A stretch of DNA of 63,355 bases, the filler included, from Kipferlia bialata (taxonomy: Eukaryota): assembly GCA_003568945.1 (NCBI GenBank). It is 4 parts of 4 records of this genome, joined end to end, with 100 filler letters (N's around TTAATTAATTAA, not from the genome) between each part and the next. Parts side by side here need not be neighbours in the genome. Positions count along the whole stretch, not along the records: positions 11,177 to 39,542 come from BDIP01000151.1; 3 more parts are not named here. The stretch is one strand, 5' to 3'. The notes under the pieces were generated by a model. The model was not told the origin of the DNA. It ran no database searches and worked only from the letters and a program-made list of their open reading frames with translations. The position numbers were made by a program, and so were the translations under genes. Below are positions 11,260 to 60,608 of the stretch, one piece after another. Every line of letters starts with the position of its first letter. Positions within the stretch are counted from its first letter, which is position 1.

Positions 11260-14200
11260 CCATACCCTGGTCTGACCAGTCCCCCGAGAGAGGGGGCCAA
11301 GGGCACAACATCAGAGACGGTATGTACCTATAGCCAACATCTGGAGTGGTGTAGTGTGGTGTATCTCGTGGAGGTTTGATGTCTGCCAGTATACTGGTGT
11401 TCTCTCTCCTTGGGTACCAACCGCCCCCACTCTTTCATTTACTAGATATTACTAGCCCTATTTGGCGACCACTCACTGTCTCCTACTACTGCATGACACC
11501 TAACGACCCATCCTCGCTAATCACAGTGTATGGTCTGCCACTCACCCCATGGTCTAAGCATTCTCGCACCCAATTGATATACTGTAGACATTTACAGTGG
11601 ACATCTATCTCCCTCTCCATGTTGCTGAGTATATCCACCCTCTGGGACTCACTCTCAGGATATTGTCTGGGATGTTGACTTGCCCTCGTTCCTCGCAATC
11701 AACCAGGCTTTCAAGGAGGCCCAACCACGCTTCCAGGAGCTCATCCCATTACTAGGTGTGTGCTCGTTTCTATATAGGGATACAAACCTGTTTTTCCACA
11801 TATTTAGTATTCCATTTTTGTATACTTTACGCTTCAAGGAGCTCATCCCCTTACTAGGTATGTGGACGTGTCTGTATACTGTATAGTATATACATATACA
11901 TACATTAGCATTAATATATACTACTCCTTATACATTGACTCCAGACGGACAGGGCCAAGCATCAGTTGCTGGGTATGTCGAGGAGATCGAGTCCATTGGG
12001 GTGCGTCTGAGCATTCCTCTGGCTGTCTCCAAGGAGAGCCATCTGCAGGTATGTTGCAGTCTCTTAGCATTCAATACACTGGGGTGGATGGGTCTTAACA
12101 CTGCTGCCTACAGAAGACTACTGTCTATAGTACCCAGTAATACCCCGACCGTTCCTAGGCCACACATACAGTGTCTCACCATAACTATGATACATTTCCA
12201 CTATTAGATTCTAACTGTCAGCAAGCCCTGGCGGTAGTGATGGGGTCGACCCTCCACAGGATTGATGACCTCATTGACAAGATTGCAAGCACAGTGCTGG
12301 AGCATGGAATAGGTGAGAGTGTCTTATTCGGTATATCAACAAGGTAGTCTCTTCGGTCAGGTCGCAACACTAATGATGTCTCTCTCTTGCCCTCCCACCA
12401 AAGATAGCGGGGCCTGTGAGGCCTTTGTGCAAATCACAGGGACATTTCGGGACCTTCTCCAGAACACCCGGACTGTGAAGAGCATCATGGTAAGTAGACT
12501 TAAAGATATACATTATATAGATGTCCTGTATACCATATTGTTGTATATGGAATATATGTAAATAGTATATGTATTCTTACACTACTGCGTATTAGTTGAA
12601 GTGCCTTTGTGATAGAATCTCTTACCCCAGGCAACTATTGATCCTTGTGAGGTTCACACGAATGCAGCGCGTGTCAGGGAGTGGGAGAGAAGGGCTGCCG
12701 CAGAGAAGGATCTGGTGACGGGTGGGAAGAAGACTGGAACACACTCCAAGAGCGTACAGCAGGTACAGTACAAGCTATGTGCATCTATTGACAGTATCGT
12801 CAGTACTGAGTCTTCCATACTTGAGTGATGAATGTGTACATCCCGTTTACTGTTTATGGTTCTACTTCCGATAGAGATTTCATACACAACAACGGAGTCA
12901 TGCCACTACATACTGTAAACGTATATCTCAGCTACACCCGGTCCTAGCTCTCACTACAATTTCATTTGTTACTGAGTGTACATACTGCTACCAACTCTCA
13001 CCTTAGGTGCAGAGTAGCGCACATGATGTGAGGGAGGATAGGGAGCCAATGAGAGAGCAGATGAGGTCTAAGAGAGAGAGGGGTCTCGTGAGGGGTGAGG
13101 ATGACAGGAGAGTACACTCCAAGTCACTGCAGCAGGTACAATCGTAGCCGATTTTATATGTCTATCAATTAGTGGTATATTGTTTCTCATTTACGTCTAT
13201 AGTGGATTAGTAGGCGCCAACGCCACGTCAGATCTCATGTATCCATACTGAATCATTCCACTACATAGAACTCAAGCAGACCTCCATACTTATCCCCCCA
13301 GTTATGCCCCGGTCCCAGCTCACCCTACAGTGGATGGACAAGAGAGGCTCCAAACCTCTACAGAGAGAGTCAGGTATGTCTCTACAGATCAGTACAAGGT
13401 ACCGCTCCCTAAGTGAGTTGATGCAGATACCGGATATCAGTGATATTCTATGTATGTTTAGCACTCTTAACAGCGATCATCGCTGAGCGATGTATAGATT
13501 CAACATATAGTCCATTTTCCTCTACCTACGGTCACGTACTTGTATCTCTTACCACAGCTCGCTAGACTTGCCCCTCCTGATGTAGCCACACTGGCACCCA
13601 GGGAGATTGAGAAGAGGGTGAGGGGAGTGCCTGCCAAGCACAAGGTGAAGACCGTGGAGAGGAAGAGGAGAGCCCCAGAGCCACACAGGCCTGAGGTGCA
13701 CAAGGTAACTACACGTATGTTCATATATTGTAGGGGATTCTGTTTGTCTGACTCATTTGTGCATGCGTGTCGTTTCCGTGTGCAATGGTGTGGAGCATAT
13801 GTATACATGTGTGTAGGAACCATACAATGGGATTCGTTGATGTGTTATATGTCGAGACATGTCCACACCATCACTATACTGATATTGAACGTCGTGGATG
13901 TCTATCTCACCCCAGCGTCCCACAGACCCTCCTGCTGTAGCCCCTGGCACTCACCAGGCCCCGGTTACCCGCAAGCCCCAGGATACTAGTGTGGTCACAG
14001 AGGGTGGGACCAAGCCCAAGGTGACGGGACACGCCAAGGGAGAGAGAGGCAAGGTCAAGAAGGCAGGGAGACAGCCAGTGGCAGTGACTGGTTTCGGGCC
14101 GCAGGTAGTACTATACAGTGATTATACACCATGCCATACTGGTCTGTATTAGCACACTTTAGTCGTCTACCATCCGTGCATGTTACACGTAGTATGGAGA

Positions 14201-28615: not shown

Positions 28616-28906
28616 CATGGGTAGCCCGAGACACACTTGGATGAGAGAGAAGTATATACAGATAAGTCCATAGTCATATACATATACGAGTAGAGAGACA
28701 CCTACATAGTATACACAATGGACTCGCCATCCGAGATAGACACAAACACCACACTGCATATACCAATATTCCCACACATACGTCTGTATACATTGAGAAA
28801 CACATTGTATTTAAACAATGTATATACTGAGAAGCTCAGCATCAATAGTAGTGAACACCAATGTGTATATACATCAATGTGATACTAGTACTATGCTTAC
28901 CTCCAC

Positions 28907-29582
28907 CTAGGTGTCCCCTGGCTCATCCGCCTGCCACCTGGGTATGAGAAGAGATTCTGTCAATACAGTAAAGCAGTCATATGGCACTCTCAGACACAAG
29001 CCGCAATAGGGAATACGAAGGAGTATATAGTTAAGGATATGGGTGATTACACAGTGAGGTCTACACTCACCCTGGCTCATGCCGCCCTGACACATCACTC
29101 TCTGTCTGCCTCTCACCCTCGTGAGAAGGCTGTCCAGTCTGTCCCTGGTGTCACCCTAGGGTGAGTGTAGGGCCATTGAAATAGAATATATATACATTAC
29201 ATAGATACACTACACCGTTATAGGAGGCTGTCCAGTCTGTCCCTGGTCACACACTGAGGTGAGCATAGGGTTAGTATATATATATATATATATATTAATA
29301 TACATATTAATTACACACAAACACTACACGAATATCGTGGTCTCACGCTGGGGTGAGTATAGGAGAATAAATATATGTATATACATATATATATATATAT
29401 ATATTCATATTACACAAGTACACTTCACCGCTATCCCTGGTCTCACATTGGAGTGAATATAGGGACAATGTATATATATACACTAATATATGTATATATA
29501 TATATTAATTACACAGATACACTATACCACTATCCCGGGTCTCACGCTGGGGTGAGTATAGGGCCAATATTTATATATATAT

Positions 29583-29615
<33 letters not shown>

Positions 29616-30951
29616 CATATTACATAGATACACTATACCACTATCCAGGGTCTCACGCTGGGGTGAGTATAAAGAGCACAGTGACACAAAACCCAATTGA
29701 TGACATGTATAGTAAGTGATACACATACACTATAACATACACTATCTACAGTATATACATGTACAATTCTATATGTACAATTGTATATATAATAATATAT
29801 GTATGTGTGTGTATCACTCACCAGCTGCTGAGCGTAGTCTCTGGCACCCTGGCCAAGGCGTGTCCCACAGAGGTGTGTGCCACTCCCACAGAGAGATAGA
29901 AGGTCCTCTAGCTGCTGGACCCACCCAGCAATGTAGACTGGGGGTGAGGTGTATACATATATATATATATATATATTAATTGTTGTATAATAGCATAATA
30001 GTATGGGTGTCGGTTAACTATATACATAATAATAGCACTCACCCTCAGTGCACTGCAGTGTGTCCACATCATAATGTATGTATCATAATGTATATATCAT
30101 AATGTATATAGTAGCACGGCTCACAGGTATGTATGTGTATGTATAATGCATATAGCATGAATTAGTATTAGTAACACCCTTACCCTCAGTGCACTGCACA
30201 GTGTCTATAGACCCAAGCTCCTGTAGGAGGACTCTCGTGTGTGTAGAATATATATATACATATATATATATATGTCACGACTACAAATTGTAGTACACAT
30301 ACCCTCAGTGCACTGCAGAGTGTCTATAGCATATTGCATTTAATATCACTTCCATGTTTGTAGAATATATATATAGTAGTTCGATGCTATATATATACAT
30401 CACACTCACCCTCAGTGCACTGTATGGTGTCTATAGACCCAAGCTCCTGTAGGAGGACCACTCTCTGCAGATAGTCTGGTATGTGTGAGAGGGACTGGAG
30501 GTGGGCGAGGCCGGCCTGTGCTCTGGCAGCCACTGGGGGTGAGAATAGTAATTATGTGTATAAATACTACACGCTATGTGTATATATATATATTCATATT
30601 AAGATTGACGAATCGTGACGCATGTATGTGTACATGTGTGTGAATCTATACACTATGTACAAGTGTGATAGAATGTATACTTACTACTCACCATATGAAT
30701 ACATACATACATATAGACATACATATATACATGCGTGTTGAAAAGCATGGTATGTACGAATTCATACACACTCACCGATGTCCTTCATGGTGGCAGGGTC
30801 AGAAGAGGGCCTGGAGTGAGTAACACATTACCCACATATATATACACACACAGGGTACACATGTACCTGTGAGAGGCAAGAGATTATGGAGCAAAGAGAG
30901 CGGTGTGGACACGATCATATACCACCGCTCCCATACAAGGAAAGCATTGTG

Positions 30952-30988
<37 letters not shown>

Positions 30989-32117
30989 ACATAAGTATGT
31001 AAAAGAGAAACAGTGGTATAGAGTGGTGGTGGTGCACATATGGTGTGTACATATATATATATATAGTATACCTGATGATATATAGAACTACATATATAGT
31101 ATATATATAGTATCTATACTTATATAGTATGGTATACCTGATGACAGGAGCAGGTAGTGCACATATGATAAAACATATATATAGTATAGTATACTGTATG
31201 ATATATATAACTACACATATAGTATATATATATAGTATATATACTTATATAATATACATAGAACATATATATAGTATACCTGATGACAGGAGCAGGGAGT
31301 GCAGTGTGTATCATGGCTCTGTACACCCTCCCAGTCCGTCTCACACTCTCTCTGGACGTTAAGACAGTGTGTAAACAGTGAATATACATAAAGACAAAGA
31401 TACATGTCTCACTGGTGGTTATAGTTTTCTCTCTCTCTGGTGTTAAGACAATGCATGTACAATGCCAGAACACAGAGACACACACAAAACATGTTTCACC
31501 GTTGGTTAGAAAACAATAATATATATATACATTATACATATACATACATACATTTATATATATATATACCCCACCTCCTCCTGGAGATTGGCCAGTATCA
31601 GTTTATCAGGTATATGTGTATATATATACATACATGTACATATATATGCCCCACCTCCTCCTGTAGATTGGTCCCCGAGTGGGAGTGGTGGGAGAGTGGG
31701 ATGGAATGACCACACTGCTGCGGAGTCGGGAGGAGCATGTCAGGTCTCTTCCTGATGTAAGACAACATTGTAGTAACTGGTCATGAATAAAACTAATGTA
31801 TTATACACACATGTATTATACACACGCCCCCTCACTGTCAAGTCTCTACCTTGGATAAGAAAGAAGTATATACTTATGAAGTGGTGGAGAGAGAGACCGG
31901 GATATAGAGAGAAACCAGATCGAGTTGTAAGGAGAAATCACCGTGACTGTTAATAGTGTTGTGCCTTACAAGAACAGCGGCTCTAGAACTGGTACCAACA
32001 CTGCAAGTATATATAGAGTATCACACTCATATATATAGTACCGTACCCCTTTCCACTCGCATGGCAAGTGCCTCCTCTGCCTTGGACAGACCAGTGCTGG
32101 AGTGAGATAGTGTTATC

Positions 32118-32152
<35 letters not shown>

Positions 32153-35100
32153 ATATATATATATATATCTGTGTTGAATGTAGCAAGTGCCTCCTCTGCC
32201 TTGGACAGGCCAGTGCTACAGTGAGATAGTGCATCTACATATATATACATACACATATATATATATAAACACACACACATATATATACACACACACACAT
32301 GTATATATATATATATATATGACAGGTATATATCAAGTGCTTACGCTGCCTTGGACAGGCCAGAGCTAGGGTAAGAAAGGTAATGTATATAGATACATAT
32401 ACATATATGTATATAGTGACACAACGTATACTTATGCATACATATACAGTGACATATATAAGTATTCGAATGTGGTATGTAATCAGTGTACTATTACTGG
32501 AGTCAGAGAGGATGTAACTACATACACTTACACTAGTATGTAGGAGTAATAATAGTACGGAGGTTATCATATGTCTGTACTGGAGTGAGCGCAAGTGGGA
32601 TGTATATATGTGTATATGTAAGGATTATGTCCAGTAAATAGACATGACAATAGGTGTCTATGTACCTCACTATGAAGCTGTGCTTCTGGGAGAAGAACCT
32701 CTGCGATTGGGGAGACCCCTTAGTAGGGGTGGACCTCTCTCTCTCCCTCACCATCTTGAAGCGGCCCATGGTGTCCTGAAGAGAGGGTGTACCCGGAGAG
32801 TACCTGTCGTCAGGTAGAACACATACTATTGTCATTATTACTATACACATATGTATACTGTATCATTATCAGTGTAATATGTATATGCGACAATGAAAGA
32901 GAGTGTACCGGAGAAATACCTATAGTTAGCACGAGGGTACAATGAGAGATATAGTAGTGGAGAAACATATATAGAGAGAGGGAGAGAGCGAGAGATGAGA
33001 CGTACATGGGAAGTCACGGTATCTAGAGATATGTATCTGAATGTAGTGGTAACATGTGATTGGGGAAGAGAGTTGGATGAATTAGGCAGCTACACACAGA
33101 CACACACAGACACACATATATACATATATACTATATCATACATGGTAAGGAACATATGTATATATGGTATTGGGCTACACGTAGTCATGTACATATATAT
33201 ATAGTGGTACCTAGCCATTGTCTGACTGATCACAGACACTCACACACACACATATATATATACTATATCATGAAAAGTAAGGAACAACTCTATATATGGT
33301 ATTGAGCGTCAAGTAACATAGTAGTGTATATATATATAGAGAGAGTGATACCTGGCCATTGTCTGACTGATGGTCTCCACTGTCTCTCTCCCCCTCTCTC
33401 TGCCCCTCTCTCTCCCTCTCACTTCCACATAACGAACAGGGGGAAAACTGCATGTTAATATGGTGAAAACAGAGACGTAGTGGCGAGGGTATAACTGTAT
33501 GATAGTATGTGTAAAGACAGACATACCAACAGGAGAACATGCAAGAGACGATAGTACAGGAGATACAACGGGATATTGATATATTGCATAGCCTGGAGTG
33601 AAACAGACAGAGAGAGAGATATATCTGTCAACGATTGCTAAGTAAGAGCATACATATACTGTATCCCCCTGGTATATAAGGAGAGAACTTATATGATAGA
33701 GAAGCAACACCTCGACGTAGCATATATATATATATATATATGTATATAATTACATATATATTGCTCCCTCGTACATATAGCAGAGAGAGCCGGAAGATGA
33801 GGAAGGCAGAGAATATTAGATAGACAGCTGTACCTGAGATCTCCCTGTGAGCGCAAAATCTCTGTATCCCTCTTGTACTGTGCCATCACTTCCCGCCCTA
33901 TTGCAATGACATCGCCGTGGGACAGCCTTCGCTTCATGGGGAATCCTGGGGAATCCTGGGGAATCCTGGGGAATCCTGGGGACAGCCTTCTCTTCCCGGG
34001 GGACACGACTGTCGGCGTCTCTCTCCTTGACTGACCTGACGTTAGACATTAATATATACATATAGATATATGTATATAGATACGGGCATGTACATGTTGT
34101 GTGGATATGTATATACATAAATATATATATATATATATATATATGTCGGATGTATATACATGACTGTTGGTGTCTCTCTCCTTGCACCTGACGTCAGATA
34201 CACCTGTGTAGCATCTACACATATATCCTAGTTACACATATGAATGTATATACAAATGGGACAAATATGTATAGCAGGAACTTCCATGTTCAGATACACA
34301 CAACGTGAGTACACACATCTCCCCACCTGGTGGCTGCTTCCCGGTGCCTGTCAGGGTAGAAGGGGTCTCATTGAGCCTGAGAGTCAGTCGGAGTAGGGGG
34401 GGGTACGCTACACGAGGAGATACATAGGGAGAGGGAGATGGAGAGAGTGTCTGGGTAACGGGGGCGGAGGGGGGCGGAGGGGGGGGGGGGGGGGGGAAAA
34501 AAGGGAAAAAAAGAAAAAAAAAAAAAAGAGGGGGGGGGGGGGGGGGAAACAATCTTCTTGTAGACCCTAGCATGAGTATACAGCAGTATCTATATAGTAT
34601 TCAAAATAGCAGTATACTATATACATATATACTAAACATTATAACTATGAGTATGCATACTGATATACCTTAATTTTGAAGTACTGTATGTACATCTGGG
34701 ATACATATTGTATATATACTGATACCACTATGTTCTATGCTATATATATATAGTGTATATATATAGTATATATAGTATATATAGTATATATACTATCTGC
34801 TATACCTTGTGAAGCACTGTGTGTACATCTGGGGCTGTCTGACCTTGACCATGGCTAGCAGGGTGCCTGTAATTAGAGAGAGAGAGAGAGAGAGGGAGGG
34901 AGAGAGAGAAAGGTATGCCTTGAACATGGCTAGCAGGGTGCCTGGGGTGAAATATATACATACACACTCACACTCACACATATGAATATAAATATATACG
35001 GAGACAGAGAGAGAGGGAGAGAGATGCCTTGACCATGGCTAGAAGGGTGCCCAATGAGAGAGAGAGAGAGAGAGAGAGGAAGAGGTCAAGAGATGGTACG

Positions 35101-35965
35101 AGCATATATAATAATATACCCAAATGCATAGAGTAGATATCCATGCATATGCATACCTAGCTCGTGCATGTGGTATGATCACACACACACATATGTATAT
35201 ATAGGAGATATCCATGTATATGCATACCTAGCTCGTGCATGTGGTGCGAGCCAATATATATACACACATATATTATTAGAGTAGATATCCATGTATATCC
35301 GTACCTAGCTCGTGCATGTGGTGGGGGGCTGCCTCCATGTCACACAGACACCTGAGGGTGAGGGGTAGACAATAGATATGTGTATATATATATATATATA
35401 TACATATAGATTGATAGATAGGTAGATACTACCACTGGTACTATACAGCCTCCATGTCACACAGACACCTGGGGGTGAGGGGCAGACAATAGATTAATTA
35501 TAATACAACGAATATATGCGTGTACTACTACTAGTACCCTACCTATCAACGAGGTCGTCTGACTGCACAGCACAGCAGAAAGAGTATACAAATATATATA
35601 AATATATATGAATACATATATACTATATATACTATAGTATAGTATACTATGTATGTACTCCTATCAATCAGGTAGTCTATCATCTGCCGTGACTGCACTG
35701 CCATGCACAGCACATATACATATATATATACATACATATATACAATACTATATATATAATGTATGGTATATGATACATACCTATCTATGAGGTCATCGAT
35801 CATCTGCCGTGACTGCACTGCCATGCACAGCACAGCAGACAGGGAACGCCTTGAACGGCCTGGCTATGAGGGGAAGACACACACACACACACGCATATAA
35901 AAATATATATGGATAGACACTGACAGGGAACGGCGGGAACGGCCTGGATATGAGGGGGATATATG

Positions 35966-35996
<31 letters not shown>

Positions 35997-37162
35997 ATGT
36001 ATGTATAGGTACTGATACAGACAGGGAGCGGCGGGAGCGGCCTGGATATGAGGGGAAGATGTATATATAAATGCATAGATACTGACAGGGAACGGCGGGA
36101 GCGGCCTGGAGGTGAGAAGCAGAAGTAGATAGATAGATATATATGTATATATATATATATGAATCAGTATGTATCAGTATGTGTATCAGTATGTATTTAT
36201 ATATACCTGACGCTGTACTTAGGGCAGATGACATGGCCCCCAGGATGTGCTTCTCCCAACATATATACACTATTACACTATATAGTATATTTATATAATA
36301 AGTATATATATATATATAATAAATATATAATAGGTATATATCCACCTGATGCAGTACTTAGGGCAGATGGCATGGCCCCCAGGATGTGCTTCTCACCCAT
36401 ATATATATATATATATATATCCATATATACACTATAATATATATATATATATATATTACCACTATGAGTATATCTATATATCACTATACCTGACGCTGTG
36501 CTCAATGCCGATGGCATGGCCCCCAGGATGTGCTTCTCCCCCACATCCCGCCTGACCTTCTGGGCAGAGGACAGGAACACAACCTGGGGTTAGAAACATA
36601 CATATATGCATATATATATGTAATATTGTTAACACTGATGTAATATTTTAGAGTGTTGATCGAAAGTAGTGAATCTGGGCAGAGGACAGAAACACAACCA
36701 AGAGGGTAAGATACACATTAGGGTATTTATATGTATACATATGCATATGTATACAAGTATATATGACTCCAAGTATATATGCATTGATGGCATTTGGACA
36801 GAGGACAGAAACACAACCTGGAGACTGGTATACCTGGAGTTAGGTAGATGTACATACATTATCTGATATGACAACACAAGCATATACGCATGTAAAGCAC
36901 TTGGACAGAGGACAATACAACCACCCATACCTTCTCTGCCTTGCCGAGTGTCCTCTTGCACTTGGAGTGGTACCGTCTATCTATATATATATCTATATAT
37001 ATCTGTATACATATATATATATATATATATGTATGTATCTATACACACCTTCTCTGCCTTGCCGAGTGTCCTCTTGCACTTGGAGTGCAGCAGAATGACG
37101 TTGTCGTTGTCCCGCTGGGCATCAGTACAGAGAGACTAGTATATATGCATACACTAGACTTG

Positions 37163-37199
<37 letters not shown>

Positions 37200-38868
37200 G
37201 TAGCAGGATGACACTGTCACTATTACTACCTGCAGTGCCTGGTTGCACTATACAATATATATATAAATATATGTATCTACCTGCAGTGCCTGGTTGTCCT
37301 ATATAATATATATATATATATATATACATGTACATATATATATTTGTATCTACCTGCAGTGCCTGGTTGTCTGGGTCCAGCTTGGCTGCGGCATCCAGCT
37401 GGATGAGGACATGGGACGTGGCCTGGGTGAGTATATACATGTACAGGGAGAGGGGGGGGAGGAGAGAGAGAGAGAGAGAGAGAGAGAGGATCAGGACATG
37501 GGAGGTGTCTTGGGTCAGAGTACAAAATACATACAAGAAAGTAAGAGAGACAGATGGTGTTGATATACTATACTGATACAGACACATACATATATATGCA
37601 TTCACATACGTTGATTGCCCTGTGGAGGTGTCCGAATATCAGTGTATATACCTCAGACTATATAGTATATATATATCTATATATCTATATAATAGTATGC
37701 ATTCACATACGTTGATTGCCCTGTGGAGGTGCCCGAATATCCTTCTGACACTCAGCTGGTCTAGACAGAAGTATATATGTATATATATATACATACATAT
37801 ATAAACTATTACTTACATTGATAGCCCTGTGCAGGTGTCCGAATATCCTTCTGACACTCAGCTGGTCTGGGAGGGAAGAGGGGAACAGGGTCTTCTTCTT
37901 GAGAGGGGACTGGAGGTGAGTCATATAGTCAATGGTTATACTCAATATAATAGTCAATTACATATTATCACTTAATACCAGTTCTTCTTGCGAGGGGGTG
38001 AGACATAGCCAATAGATTCATTCATATTCATAATGCCATACAATGCATACATGCTCACATGTCAATAGATATCTCTATACACATCCCACCTCCCCAGCCA
38101 CTGTGTCCAGGCCAGACAATCCATCTCTCTCTGTCTCTATATATATATATGTGTATATGTAGTAATGTATCTATATACATATACCTCCCCAGCCACTGTG
38201 TCCAGGCCAGACAGACACTCGGTCAGAGCGAGGAAGGCACTCAGGATCCTAGAGGGTTAGGAGACGTATATTTATACATGTACCACTATATATATATATA
38301 TATATATATGATGTACTATAGACATATATATGCTGTGTCAGAGCAAGGAAGGCACTCAGGATCCTAGAGGGTGAGGGTGAGGGTGAAGGAATATTAATGT
38401 ATATAAATACTTATGTAATATACCTTGCCACTAGTTTGTGTGTAGGCAGCTATTCTACTATACACATTATATACCTAGCCACCAGTCTATGTGTGGGTAG
38501 TTCCTTGGCCATCTCCACCAGTGCCAGGATGACTGGGAGGAGGGTGACATCGGTGTTCTTGGTGTGGAGGAGGCATACAGTGGCCCTGAAGACAGCCCTA
38601 GAGTTTAGGTATATGCTAGTATATACTAGTATATATATATAGAGAGAGCTAGAGAGAGAGAGACTGGTACATGAGGCATACAGTGGCCCCGAACTGCTCT
38701 GGGGGGCATGGTACGCAATAGTACACTAATAGTATACACACATATATATACATATACTATACCTACTGCTCTTTGCCAGCCTGGGTATGTCCATGACATC
38801 TGACTGGGGCATCACATTGCCCCTCATCTTACCAAAGCACACCACAAACTGGGTGCGAAACCTAGGTC

Positions 38869-38900
<32 letters not shown>

Positions 38901-38942
38901 CACACCACAAACTGGGTAGGGAACCTGATAGTAAGCGTGTAG

Positions 38943-38984
<42 letters not shown>

Positions 38985-39420
38985 CTCAGACTGATGTCCA
39001 CCACATCTGGGTCGTATGAGTGACTAGTATGCAGATTATAAATATATAAGTATATATTTATATACACAGGTTAATAATACCTTCTAGTACACTATTGTCA
39101 TATATTATATGTATATAAGTATATATACCTGAGACTGATGTCCACCACATCTGGGTCGTATGAGTGACTGGCATGCAGAATGCAGTTCTGGATACGGATC
39201 ATGTCGTTCCATCCCATGCGCCTCTGGAGGATCAGTATCAGTATATATATATATACAGTTATCATTAGTATAAGTATATATGTATACATATCGGTGCGAC
39301 TACTGCACACACTGGCCTAGACTCTCCATAAATGTGATTCACTACAAACCTGCTCTAGCAGTATCTCTGGTGTGGATGGGTTCTCCAGCAATGCCTTGAC
39401 ACACTCAAAGTAGTATGCAC
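28907..39420 (-). CDS. Multi-exon hypothetical protein (about 20 exons of 35-190 bp, 5'-partial) with long introns filled with microsatellites and exon-edge copies
   Basis: Full exons splice in frame: AYYFECVKALLENPSTPEILLEQ|RRMGWNDMIRIQNCILHASHSYDPDVVDISLR|FRTQFVVCFGKMRGNVMPQSDVMDIPRLAKSSR|AVFRATVCLLHTKNTDVTLLPVILALVEMAKELPTHRLVAR|ILSAFLALTECLSGLDTVAGE|SPLKKKTLFPSSLPDQLSVRRIFGHLHRAIN|ATSHVLIQLDAAAKLDPDNQALQ|SLCTDAQRDNDNVILLHSKCKRTLGKAEK|VVFLSSAQKVRRDVGEKHILGAMPSALSTASG and onward. The phases of the 3' exons are less certain. Confidence 0.7.
29125..39035 (-). repeat. Arrays of intronic partial copies of adjacent exon termini (with splice site), separated by (TA)n/(GA)n/(CA)n-rich spacers
   Basis: Counts include the full exon: ccctcagtgcactg x4 (30037-30422), caagtgc..ctgccttggacag x3 (32084-32360), cctagctcgtgcatgtggt x3 (35156-35322), catggcccccaggatgtgcttctc x3 (36232-36538), cctgcagtgcctggttg x3 (37229-37369), ttgat.gccctgtg.aggtg x3 (37611-37837). 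Confidence 0.9.
33941..33980. repeat. 10-bp tandem repeat (gaatcctggg)x4 inside a predicted exon
   Basis: Four perfect units flanked by the direct repeat gggacagccttc. Confidence 0.9.
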
Positions 39421-39542
39421 CTGACAGTAAGTATATAAGTAATGAGTATATGAACTTGACAAAAAGAGAGATGGAGGGAGTGAGAGTAATAGGGGAGGGA
39501 GCAGGGGGGGGGGGGGGGGGAAAGGAAGACTGTAAGAAAAAA

Positions 39543-40669: not shown

Positions 40670-43494
40670 ATGAGGAGTCTGCGGAGGAGTCCACAATGCT
40701 CCTGGACGAGGAGGAGGCCAAGTGAGTAGCATACACTACTATATACAATATACTATATACTGTACTATACATACTATACATACAATGCTCCTGGACGAGG
40801 AGGAGGTGTCTGTCTCTCTCTCTGTATACCCCTCACTATCTCTTCTTTATATGCTGAGTCCACTGTGTCTTCCTCTCATACTCTCTGCAGAGAGTTACAC
40901 ATGCAGAGATGAAGTTCTTTCGTATCCCCCCCCCCCCCCCCCCCCCCACCCCCCCCCCCTTTTTTTTCTCCCCCCCCCCCCCCCCCCCCCCCCCTCTCTC
41001 TCTCTCTACCCATACACATATATAGCTTCCTATATTCATCCCACCCCCAGCCATGTCCATGTCCATGTCCCTGTCTGTGCTGCTCTCTCTCTCTCTCTCT
41101 CTATCTCTCTCTATTATTATACATATACATCTACACACACCCCAGCCATGTCCCTGTCTGTCCTGCTCTACCTGACCCTGAGCCTCACAGCCATATACAA
41201 CAACATGGTGGTGTCCATACAGACATGGGAGGACTTCTATGCATACATGGTCCCAAGTGCAGGTACCTAGCTAGTGTGTGAGGGGTGTTTGTTGCTGCAG
41301 AATGGAGATACTCACTCTGTCTGTACAGTGCTCTATTCCATATAGTTACTGTATCATACATGGTGCGCAGGGCAGGTACAGAGTGTGTGGAGATGTATCA
41401 TAATGTGACTGGCATTGTATAGTATTTCGTTGTATTAGTACATACCTCTATAACATGATTCTGATACTGACACATACTTCTGTATTATACTCTTCAGAGT
41501 TTGCCGTTCTGCTCATTCTCCTCCTCCCAGTATAACCTACGTCTGTGCTAAGCTGACTCGATACATATGAATACTGACATTGGAGTCACCTGCCGTGTAT
41601 GTCCATATACTGGAGTCTAATACATAAGTATGGCATTTCAGACTGACCTTAGCTGTTGCTGCCAACTATTAATACCCACTCTGTATATTCGCTCTGCTGT
41701 CCACTGAAACCTGCTTCATATATACTATATCCCTCCACTGACCCCAGCCGTAGTGGCTGCCAACTGGGCCTCCCACACCCTGGAGACAGTGGTGCTGACA
41801 CTGGTGTATGTGCAGGTGGGTGGCATACTGCGCAATTATATATATAATGTCTGGTGTTCGTAATAATAGTTGACGGCTGAGCTCTGTAAGGGTGGAGACA
41901 AAGCCTGTATACTATGAATAGAGGACGTAGCATAAGTGAAGAAGAAGTACCTGGATTTGTGTGCATGTGGGTGTACATATACATATTGCACCCCCCACCC
42001 CCAGGTGTTCAGAGGTGTCATCAGACCTCAGACATTCAGAAGGGTCCACAGAATATGCGTGGGGGTTGGGGTACTGTTAGGTAAGAGGGTGTATATTGAT
42101 TAGTATGGAATGATGCAAATTCAGCCACTACTAGTCACGTCTTCTATCCCCCTCCTCCACTCCGTCTACTCTTCCCCCAGCCTGCCTTCTAGTGGCAGTG
42201 CATATCACAGACACAGTCTATACCAGGGCACTGTACGCCAAGGGGATAGACTACCTGGTGAACACAGGGTATGTATGTATGAATAGGTGTATGTACACAT
42301 AGAGTTATGACAATATGCGTTTTATTGGGAAGTCTGTTACCTTCTTTTATAGAAATACTAACTAGAATCGTGCTATGTAACATGAAATTGAGTAGTTATA
42401 TGCCTCACCCGCAGAATCACTGAGTACATCCGTGAGAGGGAGTATGTGACCCAGGCCTACCTCTGTCTAGACCTGTGTGCCATAGTACTGATGACACTGG
42501 TGGTGGTGGCACTGGCATACATGCGGAAGGTGCACACTGTGAGCGTATATACAGAGAAATATTTACCTGTATGGTGCATGACAGATGGCACCAATGTACG
42601 GGGAGGAAGGCTGTGTATGAGAGTCCAGTCGGGACAGCTATTTGTCCCGGTTACGGGTGTCACTAATTCTCTTGTTGTAATTATCTAGCGTTGCGCTATT
42701 GGTCTCTCTCACCTTCAGGCCGTCAGCGGTGCCTCTTCGAACATCAAGAGCAGCCAGCACAACACAAGGAGAGAGATTAAGAAGATTGACGTGCTGCCAG
42801 TGGTGTATCTACTGGATGCCCTGTCGATGTCAGTGTTATGGGTGGTGACACAGGTGTATCTATATATGTATATATATATATATAGAGAGAGAGAGGTATG
42901 TACATGCTCTGGGTGGTGACACAGGATGTGTTTATATATGTATATATATATATATATATAGAGAGAGAGGTATGTACATGCTCTGGGTGGTGACACAGGT
43001 GTATATGTATGTATATATGTATGTATGTACATGGGTGTGTATAGTGGTTACGTATAGACTGACACATATGCCACTGTTGTCAACCCATGCCTCTAACTGA
43101 CAGAGCTACAATGGTGACATGTCCAAATGGCAGGCATCGTACACAAAGTGAGTGAGTGAATCAGTGACTCAATGTGGTGTGTGCTGATAAGGAACCAAAC
43201 TCAGCTTATTGCGCTGCACATAGCAAAGCGGTATCCTTTACCCCCAGGCTCACCTTCATCTTTGCCTCTACCATGGGGTGTGTCTGTCTCTGCACTGTCC
43301 TGTACCCAGCCTCCCAGGGCAGGAAGGGGAGGGGACCAGCAAAGTATGCACCAGCTAGAGGTATTCATGTGGTTATCTATTTGTATTCTTTTGTACCTAC
43401 TTGACACTTTGTGTACATAGCCTTGCAAGCTACTGATCACCCTAGAAGCACAGAGACACTTCCATCATGGCAACACCATCAACGGAATGACTGA
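40670..43494 (+). CDS. Multi-exon multi-pass membrane protein (start uncertain)
   Basis: Spliced exons give several hydrophobic helices: SLSVLLYLTLSLTAIY, RVHRICVGVGVLL, AYLCLDLCAIVLMTLVVVALAYMRK, VLPVVYLLDALSMSVLWVVTQ and LTFIFASTMGCVCLCTVLYP. The terminal exon ends in TGA at 43494. Confidence 0.55.
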
Positions 43495-43715: not shown

Positions 43716-46700
43716 TCATATCAACTTGATACCCTGGTACACCATGAATACCACCAAGTATGGCATCATTCTTCCAGCGTTGGTTTCCCGTATCTGCACT
43801 GTATATGTGACTGGGACGTATGGCTGGTCCCACCTGTCCTGCTCCGTCATCATAACATAGACAGAGTCCCCGTTCTCATTGGAGGCCAGGTTGATCAAGT
43901 GTGAGACTGTACTCTGGTATTCAGGCATAGAAGTTTACGTTCGTACTATGAACAACCGACAATTAGACACCGTAGTCCCTACCTCTTTCTCGCCCTGGTG
44001 ATACTCCCCACTAAGGGTGTTGTAGTGTGCAATGGGGGTAATTCCGTGGGACTTGTACCTACGTGCCGATGCACACCAGGGTATGTGCTCTGGCACCACA
44101 GTCTCCCCCTCCACCACCTCTACTGGCCAGTATGGCCCATACTGTATGGGGAGTAACCACTGAGGAACCCAGTGGGTTCTGAGACTATGACCTCAGTTGA
44201 CTCAGGTGCAGCACCAACCTTGCCGTCACCACTTATATGCCGTGGAGACTCAGTGACCCACTGACCCGAGAGGGAAAGAGAGCAGTGGTGGAAGTCTCTC
44301 TCCCTTGTGCTGTAGAATACATGGAGGGTGTCCCCTATCAGCACACTGCCACGGGTATCACTCCGACCCCAGGGGTGGTCGGGCCACCGCATCCACTCCT
44401 AGTGCATCAGTACATACATGAATGGATCAATGGCATCAGTACATACATGAATGGATCATTCGTCTACATACTACAAGCAAACATATCCAATATATAAACA
44501 ACACTTATTACCAGCGCATCCACTCCTGAGACATCAGTGTATAGTGTGTACTACACACACACATATATGTATACTCATACATAACAAGTATGTCAAGCCA
44601 TATCGTACCAATGCAACAATTCCAGTTGGAATGGTGAGTATGGTACCGATGAGATATGAGTGTACACCAGGTGTGATAATACACCATGAAGTCGCCATGG
44701 TGTTCTAGACAGATAACACCCATATGTTCATACGTACAAACGTGTGATTTACCTTCTCCTCTGTGTCGTATGCCCAGGTGTGGTGCTGCTCCGTTGTCAC
44801 AACTAGGTACCCCGGGAGGCGGTTCAGATCAATTTTGGTGTTGTAACCTTTGTTATCGATGATGTCCGGTACAAAAGAGGCACTCCACTCCCTCGACCCA
44901 GTGTCTAGAACGTGTAGAGTAGTTCGGGACTGATGTGGGCAGTGCAGGATGTACACATGGCTGTAGTCACTTGTGCACTTCACGTATGGGTGGGGGTACC
45001 CCCTCTGGGTGGCTGATGCCTCAGGTATGGTAGGGGCACCTGGCAAGCGTTCGACAGTGAGCCCCAACACGCTATCGGTGGCGATACAGTCAGACACTCT
45101 GGTGCACACGTACCAGTGCTCATCGATGAGGACCAGTGTCTCTGCAGCGGTCATAGGACATGACATCCATATGTCACCAGAGGGTAGGTTGTGAGGCCTC
45201 TCGTGATATTCCAACTGCAGGTGGGGGGCACTTGTGAGTAGTGGTAGTCTTTGTAAGTTGCGTAGTGGATGAGACTTAGCGACCCTGTGGCCCTGTGGAG
45301 CTCTTGCTGCCTGACACACAATCGTCTGTATGGACTTTGGACATGTGTGGTCTAATAGCACCCTTGTCACAGAGAGTGTGTTACAACAGTGTAGAAGGGG
45401 CAACATGTGGTGGAGATTCAATGCAGTGATGTTCACTCCCCTCAGGTCAAGGCCTCCCCCGTATCTAGCTCTCAAGTCATCACCTGGAAGACACTCACAG
45501 AGAGTCTGGATGTTGTCAACAGTGACTGACTCAAGCCCCACTGCTATCTTACAGAGACATGCCAGAAGACTTGATGGATCTATAGCAGGCGGGGGAACAT
45601 GTGCAAGTGATGCCTCCCGTCCATCGTCTCCTAGGTGTTGGACACTGGCCACGTCACTTAGGGGTACAGATGGTGCAGGTACTCTGTTTAGGACAGATAG
45701 TGGGTGGAGACCCCCGGTGAGACTACCCAAGAGGTGAGGTAGAGGGGTAGTGGGGTCAGAGGTCAGTAGCATTCTGGCTGCCTTCGCACACATATACACT
45801 AACCAGGGGGCAGACAGTTGGTACCTCTCGAAGGCCCTTAGCACACAGTCACTTAGAGGAGAGCCTGGACACTCTGCTGCAACAAGGAGTAGCTGAATAG
45901 GGGTACTCGAGTGCTGGTAGGACCTTGCATCCACTAAGTACCGACCAGTAGCCTCCTCTATGGTGGCCACTGTTCTCTGCAGGTGACTGAGGATGTAACT
46001 CTGGTGGTTGGGCAGCCCCTGATACAGCTTGTACAACTCCATGCTGTAGAGTCGGCAACAGTACAGGCTGCTCACGACGGTCTCCAGAGTAGACTCGATG
46101 ACACCTGCCAGCAGACTGTGTGTCTGGGGGTACATGCACAAGACCTCGCGTGTCTGTGAGAGAGATGCCTGGGGCCTTCCATGCTCTGCCTCATGCGATG
46201 GTATCCCGTGCCTATCAGAGGCCGACACCAGTATGTCAAGCAGGTCTAACAGAGTGGACGCACAGGACACTGTCGACCCCTCCAAGAGTGTGTGAACTGC
46301 ATGTGTCACACGTGACAGGCCTAGACTGCACAGACTGAGCATAACGGGTATGAGTAGCCTTTGCGGCTCTTCAGAGCTCAGTATCTGCCCCACAACATGT
46401 ACAGCAGCTTCCATCGGGGATGTATGGGTCAGATTACAGATGCCGGACAGAGTCTGAGTGGAACGCAGGTGCTGGACGCATAGGAAGTGAGAGAGACGGA
46501 CAGTGATGTCGTACTCGTTGGTGTATGCAGTAGTGACCATAGCACTGCGTGGCCCTGTCTGCTGGCACAGCAGAAACTGATGACAAAGATGCGAGCCAAC
46601 GGTGTCTTCTGACACTCTGTAGTACAAGCCCGTGCCGGTGTGATACCTCACAAGGGGGCAAGAGCCAAAGAGTCCAAACATATAGATCCAGTCCCCTGCC

Positions 46701-59842: not shown

Positions 59843-60608
59843 GGCCCCCTAGATGTGGATGCCCCTTCCTGCCCAGTGTGGCACTTTGTGCCAGAGGCAG
59901 CCACAATAGGTATGTATATGGATATATATGCATATATAGATACACGTAGTAGGTATTAGATAGCAGAGGCAGCCACAGTAGGTATCATATATACACAGCT
60001 ATATAGTATGCCTCTCTCACTCTCTGTCTCTGGTTTCTCAGGTCTGTCTGGCCTTGACTTCATGAGTGTGTAGACCTATCTCTCTCTCTCTCTTCGTCTA
60101 TCTCTCTCTCTTATCTCTGACCCCTATATGATACTGATATTGATACTGATACCAGGTCTGTCTGGCCTTGAGTTCATGAGTATGTGTATCATTCTCTCTC
60201 TCAGTATATATGTCTGTGTATATACCTTCCCTTACCCCAGGTCTGTCTGGCCTTGAGTTCATGAGCGTGCTGTCCATTGTACTCCTGCTAGTCATACTGG
60301 GCCTGGATGCATGGGTCGGGGTCAGGTATATATCACACTCTATACTACTATACTATACACTATATACTATAGAGTATGGTGCTGGTCATACTGGGCCTTG
60401 ACGCAATGGGTCGGGGTCAGGTGCGGCACTCATAGAGTGTATATAAAATAAGAAGCAGTATGGAGTGCTCCCCCTCACCCCCAGGCGCTACCTCGCCCTG
60501 CACAAGAACGACTACATAGAGATTGTGTCCAAGGACAGGGCCAGGAAGAGGGCCCAGAGAGGGAGGGACGAGGAGGAGTCGTCAGAGCTAGACAGGGGCG
60601 AGGCATAG
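59843..60608 (+). CDS. 3' end of a membrane protein with a C-terminal TM helix and charged tail; exons 59843-59909, 60241-60325, 60485-60608
   Basis: In-frame splice: GPLDVDAPSCPVWHFVPEAATIG|LSGLEFMSVLSIVLLLVILGLDAWVGVR|RYLALHKNDYIEIVSKDRARKRAQRGRDEEESSELDRGEA-TAG. Confidence 0.65.

Follow-up and report, generated by a model that had tools for sequence, protein, structure and literature searches.

The question raised by this locus is why an intron of Kipferlia bialata should contain repeated copies of the end of the preceding exon, and why these copies should deviate from the exon mainly at silent positions. The window, i.e. the whole stretch of 63,355 nt that was analysed, is made of pieces joined by N-linkers and harbors the host gene on its minus strand together with exon 9 and its copies (termed echoes in the following), and all coordinates count along the whole stretch. 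The gene model was built by hand, its RNA support comprising the two junctions of exon 9 only. Exon 4 (40 amino acids) has no match among longer proteins or cluster representatives, no Pfam family was found in 11 single exons, and the region 35700-37200 is free of Rfam matches. The gene and the elements around the end of exon 9 are as follows.

28901..39420, minus strand: host gene model with 24 exons and GT-AG introns throughout, open over 686 amino acids, 5' end beyond the contig edge
36490..36583, minus strand: working exon 9 of the 24-exon model, 94 nt, VVFLSSAQKVRRDVGEKHILGAMPSALSTAS plus g, supported by a probable-RNA contig
36403..36489, minus strand: used donor gtatag and TA-rich spacer 1, terminating in a (TA)n run
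36346..36402, minus strand: echo 1, copy of the last 57 nt of exon 9, seven silent codons and one boundary replacement
36258..36345, minus strand: TA-rich spacer 2
36207..36257, minus strand: echo 2, repeating the final 51 nt of exon 9, four silent codons common to echo 1 and a private P>S
36106..36206, minus strand: innermost stretch of 101 nt with canonical donor and branch-point acceptor

Both donor echoes of exon 9 begin abruptly after TA-rich DNA and end at a GT, the copied part in intron 9 being the 3' half of exon 9 plus the donor (n = 2). Echo 1 is followed by the unused donor gtggat and has no acceptor of its own; after echo 2 comes the unused donor gtatat. The exon 9 copies follow each other at a spacing of 144 and 139 nt, of which only 51-57 nt align, and on the intron side the identity of the two donor echoes is 0.30 and 0.50. 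Near its end spacer 2 contains a 13-nt motif common to spacer 1 (by eye), and echo and spacer were therefore probably duplicated as one unit. The innermost stretch likely represents the intron as it stood before the duplications.

Exon 9 ends with cca tcg gca ttg agc aca gcg tca g/gt at 36490, echo 1 with cca tct gcc cta agt act gca tca g/gt at 36346 and echo 2 with tca tct gcc cta agt aca gcg tca g/gt at 36207 (all minus strand, the slash marking the boundary); on re-reading the sequence, these strings are exactly those given in an earlier, sequence-only reading of the locus. Likewise, echo 1 carries the seven base changes over six consecutive codons described there, every one silent. Upstream of this block an eighth silent change (ggg>ggt) is found, whereas the sole replacement, gtg>atg, sits at the eroded edge meeting the (TA)n run. 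The comparison of silent and replacement changes which that reading had proposed yields 8:1 base changes for echo 1 alone. A neutral echo as the null gives P=1e-4 to 4e-4, and setting a constrained exon next to that neutral echo gives P=0.004 to 0.011, all of these values being post hoc as echo 1 is the most diverged echo by change count. Seven of its 17 codons are changed, and a run of at least six among them has P=0.0025.

Echo 2 agrees with echo 1 at four silent codons and is exon-like at the next two; its P>S was already contained in the codons quoted earlier, without comment there. This mosaic, formerly taken to point to recombination or conversion between echo and exon, is a real pattern, but it does not force recombination: codons private to one copy number four in the exon, three in echo 1 and one in echo 2, and any three sequences fit a tree, so a three-copy tree accommodates echo 2 as it stands. 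The block order of the private codons has P=7/35=0.2 (hand count). Unequal exchange would produce just such a pattern, and the two spacers have a motif in common. Recombination is still the best explanation of the data as a whole, with echo 2 no proof of it and stronger evidence coming from the clock of echo decay described below. Among the four copies of exon 10 all four combinations occur at two positions, a weak sign with one position at an echo edge.

Transcripts, which the sequence-only reading had suggested searching for joined echoes, were inspected in run X2, which is RNA by guess (no run is recorded as RNA), though its contig is spliced at both exon 9 junctions. This contig (3760 nt, depth 162) spans 36489-36585 with no other letters; it is the exon 9 copy throughout, and the mRNA is thus not built from both copies. 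Beyond this span its loose ends correspond to the last part of exon 8 and, from 35859 on, to the beginning of exon 10, in the form that the exon has (by eye). Since the contig joins exon 9 to the exon 10 start at 35859, the outermost sites of intron 9 are used, and the main mRNA therefore employs the first donor and the last acceptor and skips two donor and three acceptor echoes. The own donor of exon 8 is indistinguishable from its identical echo in this contig. An echo-type form is absent from the one X2 contig examined, rare variants being dropped in contigs and hence invisible there. As for a second allele or transcript, a search at 80% likeness gave only one contig in X2 and none in X1, and the stretch was met with in no other strain among the runs searched. 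A branch-point motif before a nearby AG was found in none of the 19 donor echoes, and echo 1, if spliced as an exon, would be 46 nt long and frame-shifting. The possibility that the echoes are exons of an allele with extra introns was considered and discarded: an AG at the start is lacking in most donor echoes, and a branch point in all of them. At 36105 (minus strand), the acceptor that is skipped possesses a canonical branch-point motif, and the used acceptor at 35859 is missed by the branch-point pattern.

The echoes are real and extend over the whole host gene, which contains 38 of them at 26 of its 46 splice sites. Those neighboring intron 9 are given below.

35781..35859, minus strand: working exon 10, matched by the loose end of the RNA contig
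36105-36084, 36041-36018 and 35943-35922 (within 35922..36105), minus strand: three acceptor echoes of exon 10
36817-36795 and 36698-36674 (the latter with its AG lost), minus strand: two acceptor echoes of exon 9
36931..36969, minus strand: exon 8 donor echo, matching the exon at all 39 nt, with background similarity on the intron side

All three acceptor echoes of exon 10 keep the peptide of the exon, with two to four silent codons each, including agg>cgc. A frame-blind search of exon ends against introns, anchored at GT or AG, detected 30 echoes in the 46 adjacent site-intron pairs and none in 1058 other pairs. Without anchoring, 36 of 37 exon-to-intron matches fell on the tandem side in the intron next to the exon, 34 being at most 3 nt from the exon end, and eight echoes were added to the 30 anchored ones. 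Seven of the latter are identical to the exon and several have decayed. Echoes accumulate replacements; one contains a stop (32365), and an echo of a different gene has a frameshift (~60404). Before exon 23, five successive acceptor echoes are found about 100 nt apart (29657-29155, minus strand), their decay rising with distance. Within predicted exon 14 a 10-nt unit is repeated about four times (33940-33980, minus strand).

A second gene (59843-60577, plus strand) has echoes of both kinds, donor and acceptor, at exons 1 and 2, one donor echo showing three silent changes, one replacement and a 1-nt insertion. In two other genes the ungapped echoes amount to only two silent and three replacement codons, too few for a test, and beyond a gap there are three more silent changes and one replacement (by eye); of the gene at 11.6-12.3 kb, whose model loses frame at the third exon, exons 1-2 only were used. 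Additional short tandem duplicates lie at 11727-11878, 40693-40806, 41045-41169, 42839-43029 and 44384-44538, and splice sites are the location of at least some of them. A GC-rich, echo-free region carries a PPi-type phosphoenolpyruvate carboxykinase (PF26300; 2744-5158, plus strand). This open reading frame aligns over 96% of its length with K. bialata KIPB_001128 at 100% identity, a second K. bialata paralogue being 72% identical and the other listed matches, prokaryotic or unnamed, 44-47%. Long C/T or G homopolymer tracts of low-quality look occur at 34480-34550, at 40930-41000 and at contig ends near 11080, 39540 and 59800; one such tract falls in intron 12 of the host gene model.

In order to judge the silent excess beyond echo 1, all 38 echoes were compared with their exons, the resulting statistics describing one gene with non-independent copies. 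pS is 0.23-0.26 and pN 0.04, thus pN/pS 0.15-0.17 (bootstrap 0.10-0.26). Leaving out the two donor echoes of exon 9 gives 0.17-0.20, with P=4e-6 to 5e-5 against a free-echo null in which the echo is unconstrained, the exon is constrained and a ratio of at least about 0.5 is expected. When one echo per site is counted and the exon 9 finding is excluded, 25 silent and 12 replacement changes are left (P=4e-4 to 7e-3). For the 30 anchored echoes, silent and replacement codons stand at 45:17 in the true frame as compared to 6:58 and 2:63 in the wrong frames, and differences at the three codon positions are 16/292, 6/290 and 53/287. The eight echoes from the unanchored search only are not significant by themselves (10:7, P=0.08-0.12), replacements show no excess of conservative changes over chance (BLOSUM62, n = 16, P=0.25), nearest and farther echoes differ as a trend only (15:2 versus 17:6), and the changes have no GC3 direction (17 versus 12, P=0.46). 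The pN/pS values and the count of one echo per site support protein-level constraint on the echo lineage throughout the host gene.

The constraint claimed earlier from echo 1 is therefore borne out gene-wide, but as past rather than present constraint. For the timing, 10 sites with at least two echoes (79 codons) were used and changes were assigned by parsimony. Changes private to an echo comprise eight silent and nine replacement changes, one of the latter a stop (neutral silent share 0.27, P=0.06), whereas the exon differs from all echoes of a site by 12 silent changes and no replacement; these 12 stem from six sites, and four of them from the exon 9 finding. The clock given by echo decay, about 0.024 per site, predicts 1.6 silent exon-versus-all-echo differences, or 5.0 at the upper limits, so that the 12 observed have P=1e-7, or 0.005 at the upper limits. 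This 12:0 ratio against near-neutral private changes places the constraint in the past, in line with a main mRNA that skips the exon 9 echoes and with donor echoes devoid of branch-point motifs. The ancestors of the echoes thus appear to have been working exon ends on a lineage apart from today's exon, which have been drifting since; the weak silent excess among the private changes may reflect some present constraint. On the intron side the flanks are 52-59% identical against a background of 34-35%, which suggests that they are related, yet too diverged for young copies on the same chromosome, and TA-repeat slippage may add to this divergence.

On balance we consider it probable, by a modest degree, that the echoes, as tandem copies of exon ends and splice sites that are not used, descend from the working exon ends of highly diverged alleles, which would be why they deviate from the exon at silent sites. 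Such an origin would begin with duplications of about 70-150 nt in a gene rich in TA microsatellites; while their anatomy is visible in the array, their cause would probably be slippage or break repair at (TA)n runs. Duplications across one splice site would be harmless since first donor and last acceptor are used, as probable RNA demonstrates for exon 9 and as we presume elsewhere. Crossover or conversion between alleles, or exchange out of register that pairs an echo with the exon on the homologous chromosome, would then set the exon end of one allele beside the echoes of another, both lineages having been purified as coding sequence during their divergence. The stranded echoes finally decay nearly neutrally, as the private changes show. 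This model would require a silent diversity of about 0.2 plus recombination, either within the species itself or within an ancestor that was a hybrid; diversity of this order occurs in a few hyperdiverse eukaryotes.

The sufficiency of this scheme, and no more than that, was explored by toy Wright-Fisher simulations (N 150-200, 3-5 runs, settings picked after seeing the data). Exon-echo conversion within a chromosome, with no recombination, gave pN/pS 0.52-0.72 in all eight settings. Exchange between chromosomes, be it out of register or by ordinary crossover, gave 0.08-0.20 when rates were high and 0.21-0.52 when they were low. The observed pS was matched only for theta 0.2-0.3, where a high exchange rate gave pS 0.17-0.28 and pN 0.02-0.04, allelic silent diversity being about 0.2. 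In these toy simulations it takes exchange between chromosomes to reproduce the observed numbers. The gene that is rich in echoes coincides with the part of the window that is rich in TA: between 27000 and 39000 the density of (TA)n is about 20 times that of the rest, with 49 runs of (TA)5 or longer in 27-39 kb against 10 in the remaining 51 kb, and GC drops to 0.38-0.41. TA runs as the source of the duplications are hence plausible, for one gene. NHEJ is reported to be missing in metamonads, which are said to depend on homologous recombination, and fornicates are reported to have lost Rad51A and retained two Dmc1 paralogues (PMC8516963, section 8); the gene set as stated there fits homology-based repair and does not test it.

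An identical silent-only signature would arise if the echo version had been donated by a diverged working paralogue, homeologue or introgressed copy, repair from which left exon ends behind. Such a donor would explain near-saturated local tracts (six of six codons) better than average polymorphism does, and the reported reliance of metamonads on homologous recombination in place of NHEJ (PMC8516963) would suit it. However, no second transcript contig is seen at 80% likeness, the copies stand strictly in tandem position, and exon 10 presents several silent versions of one peptide, too many for one donor; we regard this origin as unlikely. The echoes might instead be fossils of the same allele, the exon having moved faster at silent sites through selection to differ (splicing signals) or a higher mutation rate. 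All 12 exon-versus-all-echo differences are silent and could indeed sit on the exon branch, and the exon 9 differences cluster near the splice site. This would demand about eight times the rate permitted by echo decay, though, and it is at odds with changes that lack a base direction, with intron flanks more diverged than silent sites and with echoes that differ silently among themselves as well (8/17), which makes it quite improbable.

Present use of the echoes as minor alternative exon ends or micro-exons under direct selection would account for the low pN/pS and, because contigs lose rare forms, would stay hidden there; moreover, some donor echoes have an AG giving a length divisible by three, and the exon 10 echoes are followed by a GT. 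The missing branch-point motifs (0/19 donor echoes), the 46-nt frame-shifting exon that echo 1 would form, the stop and frameshift found in echoes and a main mRNA that skips them render such use very unlikely. That the echoes are plain neutral tandem duplicates, with echo 1 the lucky extreme of many, gains some color from its choice as the most striking case, from the 7 of 30 anchored echoes still identical to the exon and from the several decayed ones. It is rejected for the host gene, where a ratio of at least 0.5 would be expected and the silent excess survives both removal of the finding and the one-echo-per-site count, and we give it hardly any weight. The sequence-only reading had itself named an assembly artefact, in which pieces of a second haplotype's exon are stitched into the intron. 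The assembly is fragmented, a low-quality C/T tract lies at ~34480-34550, and no DNA contig of X1 matched on exon 9 (an absence that itself proves nothing). But exact repeats reach at most 29 nt within the array and at most 41 nt within the gene, so that short reads cross every copy, and both lengths are below 55, the largest default k of SPAdes. X1 contains 0.96 of 504 sampled 31-mers of 34600-39500, with the proviso that it may be the source sample and not independent; runs X3-X19, in which only 0.05 of the sampled 31-mers are present, were left out. A second haplotype would furthermore contribute a whole exon and not a truncated piece fused to a TA run, and up to three echoes occur per site. 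An artefact thus appears very unlikely.

Gene conversion between a gene and a non-functional copy is familiar, as is the concerted evolution of tandem copies: exchange keeps the copies alike while selection acts only on the working one. Contrary to conversion on one chromosome, for which the simulated pN/pS is at least 0.5, the Kipferlia data require exchange between working alleles that have diverged. A study of a potato RdRp has reportedly described the gain of an intron through tandem genomic duplication. Here, too, a segment with splice signals is doubled and one copy is intronic, but no new intron arises at exon 9; an existing one is lengthened. Unlike duplicated alternative or mutually exclusive exons, the donor echoes have no branch-point acceptor of their own (0/19), and echo 1 breaks the frame.

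The closest likeness is with intron 7 (IVS7) of human F7, where the first unit of a 37-bp VNTR is described as lying across the exon-intron boundary, the downstream donor copies as silent and the most upstream donor as used (PMC1557585). Similarly, the first unit at Kipferlia exon 9 spans the boundary, and the pseudo-donors of intron 9 are silent with the most upstream donor in use, as judged from the main contig only. The near-identical, fixed-length head-to-tail units described for F7 differ from the Kipferlia units of ~140 nt with unalignable spacers in two to four copies; the latter, moreover, are found at 26/46 splice sites of one gene, at acceptors too, and with a silent excess. In human segmental duplications, internal tandem repeats at exon-intron boundaries are reported to alter gene structure, with unequal crossing-over and slippage named as sources; the word 'synonymous' is absent from the main text of that report (PMC2812944). 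Such human repeats can yield new introns or alternative transcripts, whereas the Kipferlia mRNA retains the intact exon. A literature search, judged by titles and the openings of abstracts and with most subscription journals outside it, retrieved no report of Kipferlia echoes or of a silent imprint from other alleles. The published K. bialata draft is a short-read SPAdes assembly with 124,912 GT-AG introns, and the main text of the paper does not contain 'duplicat', 'heterozyg' or 'ploid' (PMC5874029).

The echoes illustrate a route of intron growth, as well as splicing that selects the outermost among several good-looking sites, and they advise caution in that a low dN/dS of an intronic exon copy is no proof of its use. 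In a wider and more tentative form, which we hold possible without calling it probable, Kipferlia introns grow by stranded exon ends of other alleles, and one assembly archives about 20% silent variation and proves recombination between diverged chromosomes. In the boldest form the echoes may also be a reservoir that returns tested variants to the exons, in the manner of silent cassettes. Sex and population diversity are hard to demonstrate in uncultured or single-strain protists. If the echoes carry exon ends of other alleles, exon-versus-echo pN/pS and pS would provide a recombination test and an estimate of silent diversity from a single genome, and such a test could be extended to the 124,912 introns reported in the K. 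bialata genome paper (PMC5874029). For Kipferlia, a free-living protist of the fornicates, the echoes would then be a record of genetic exchange that is legible in one genome.
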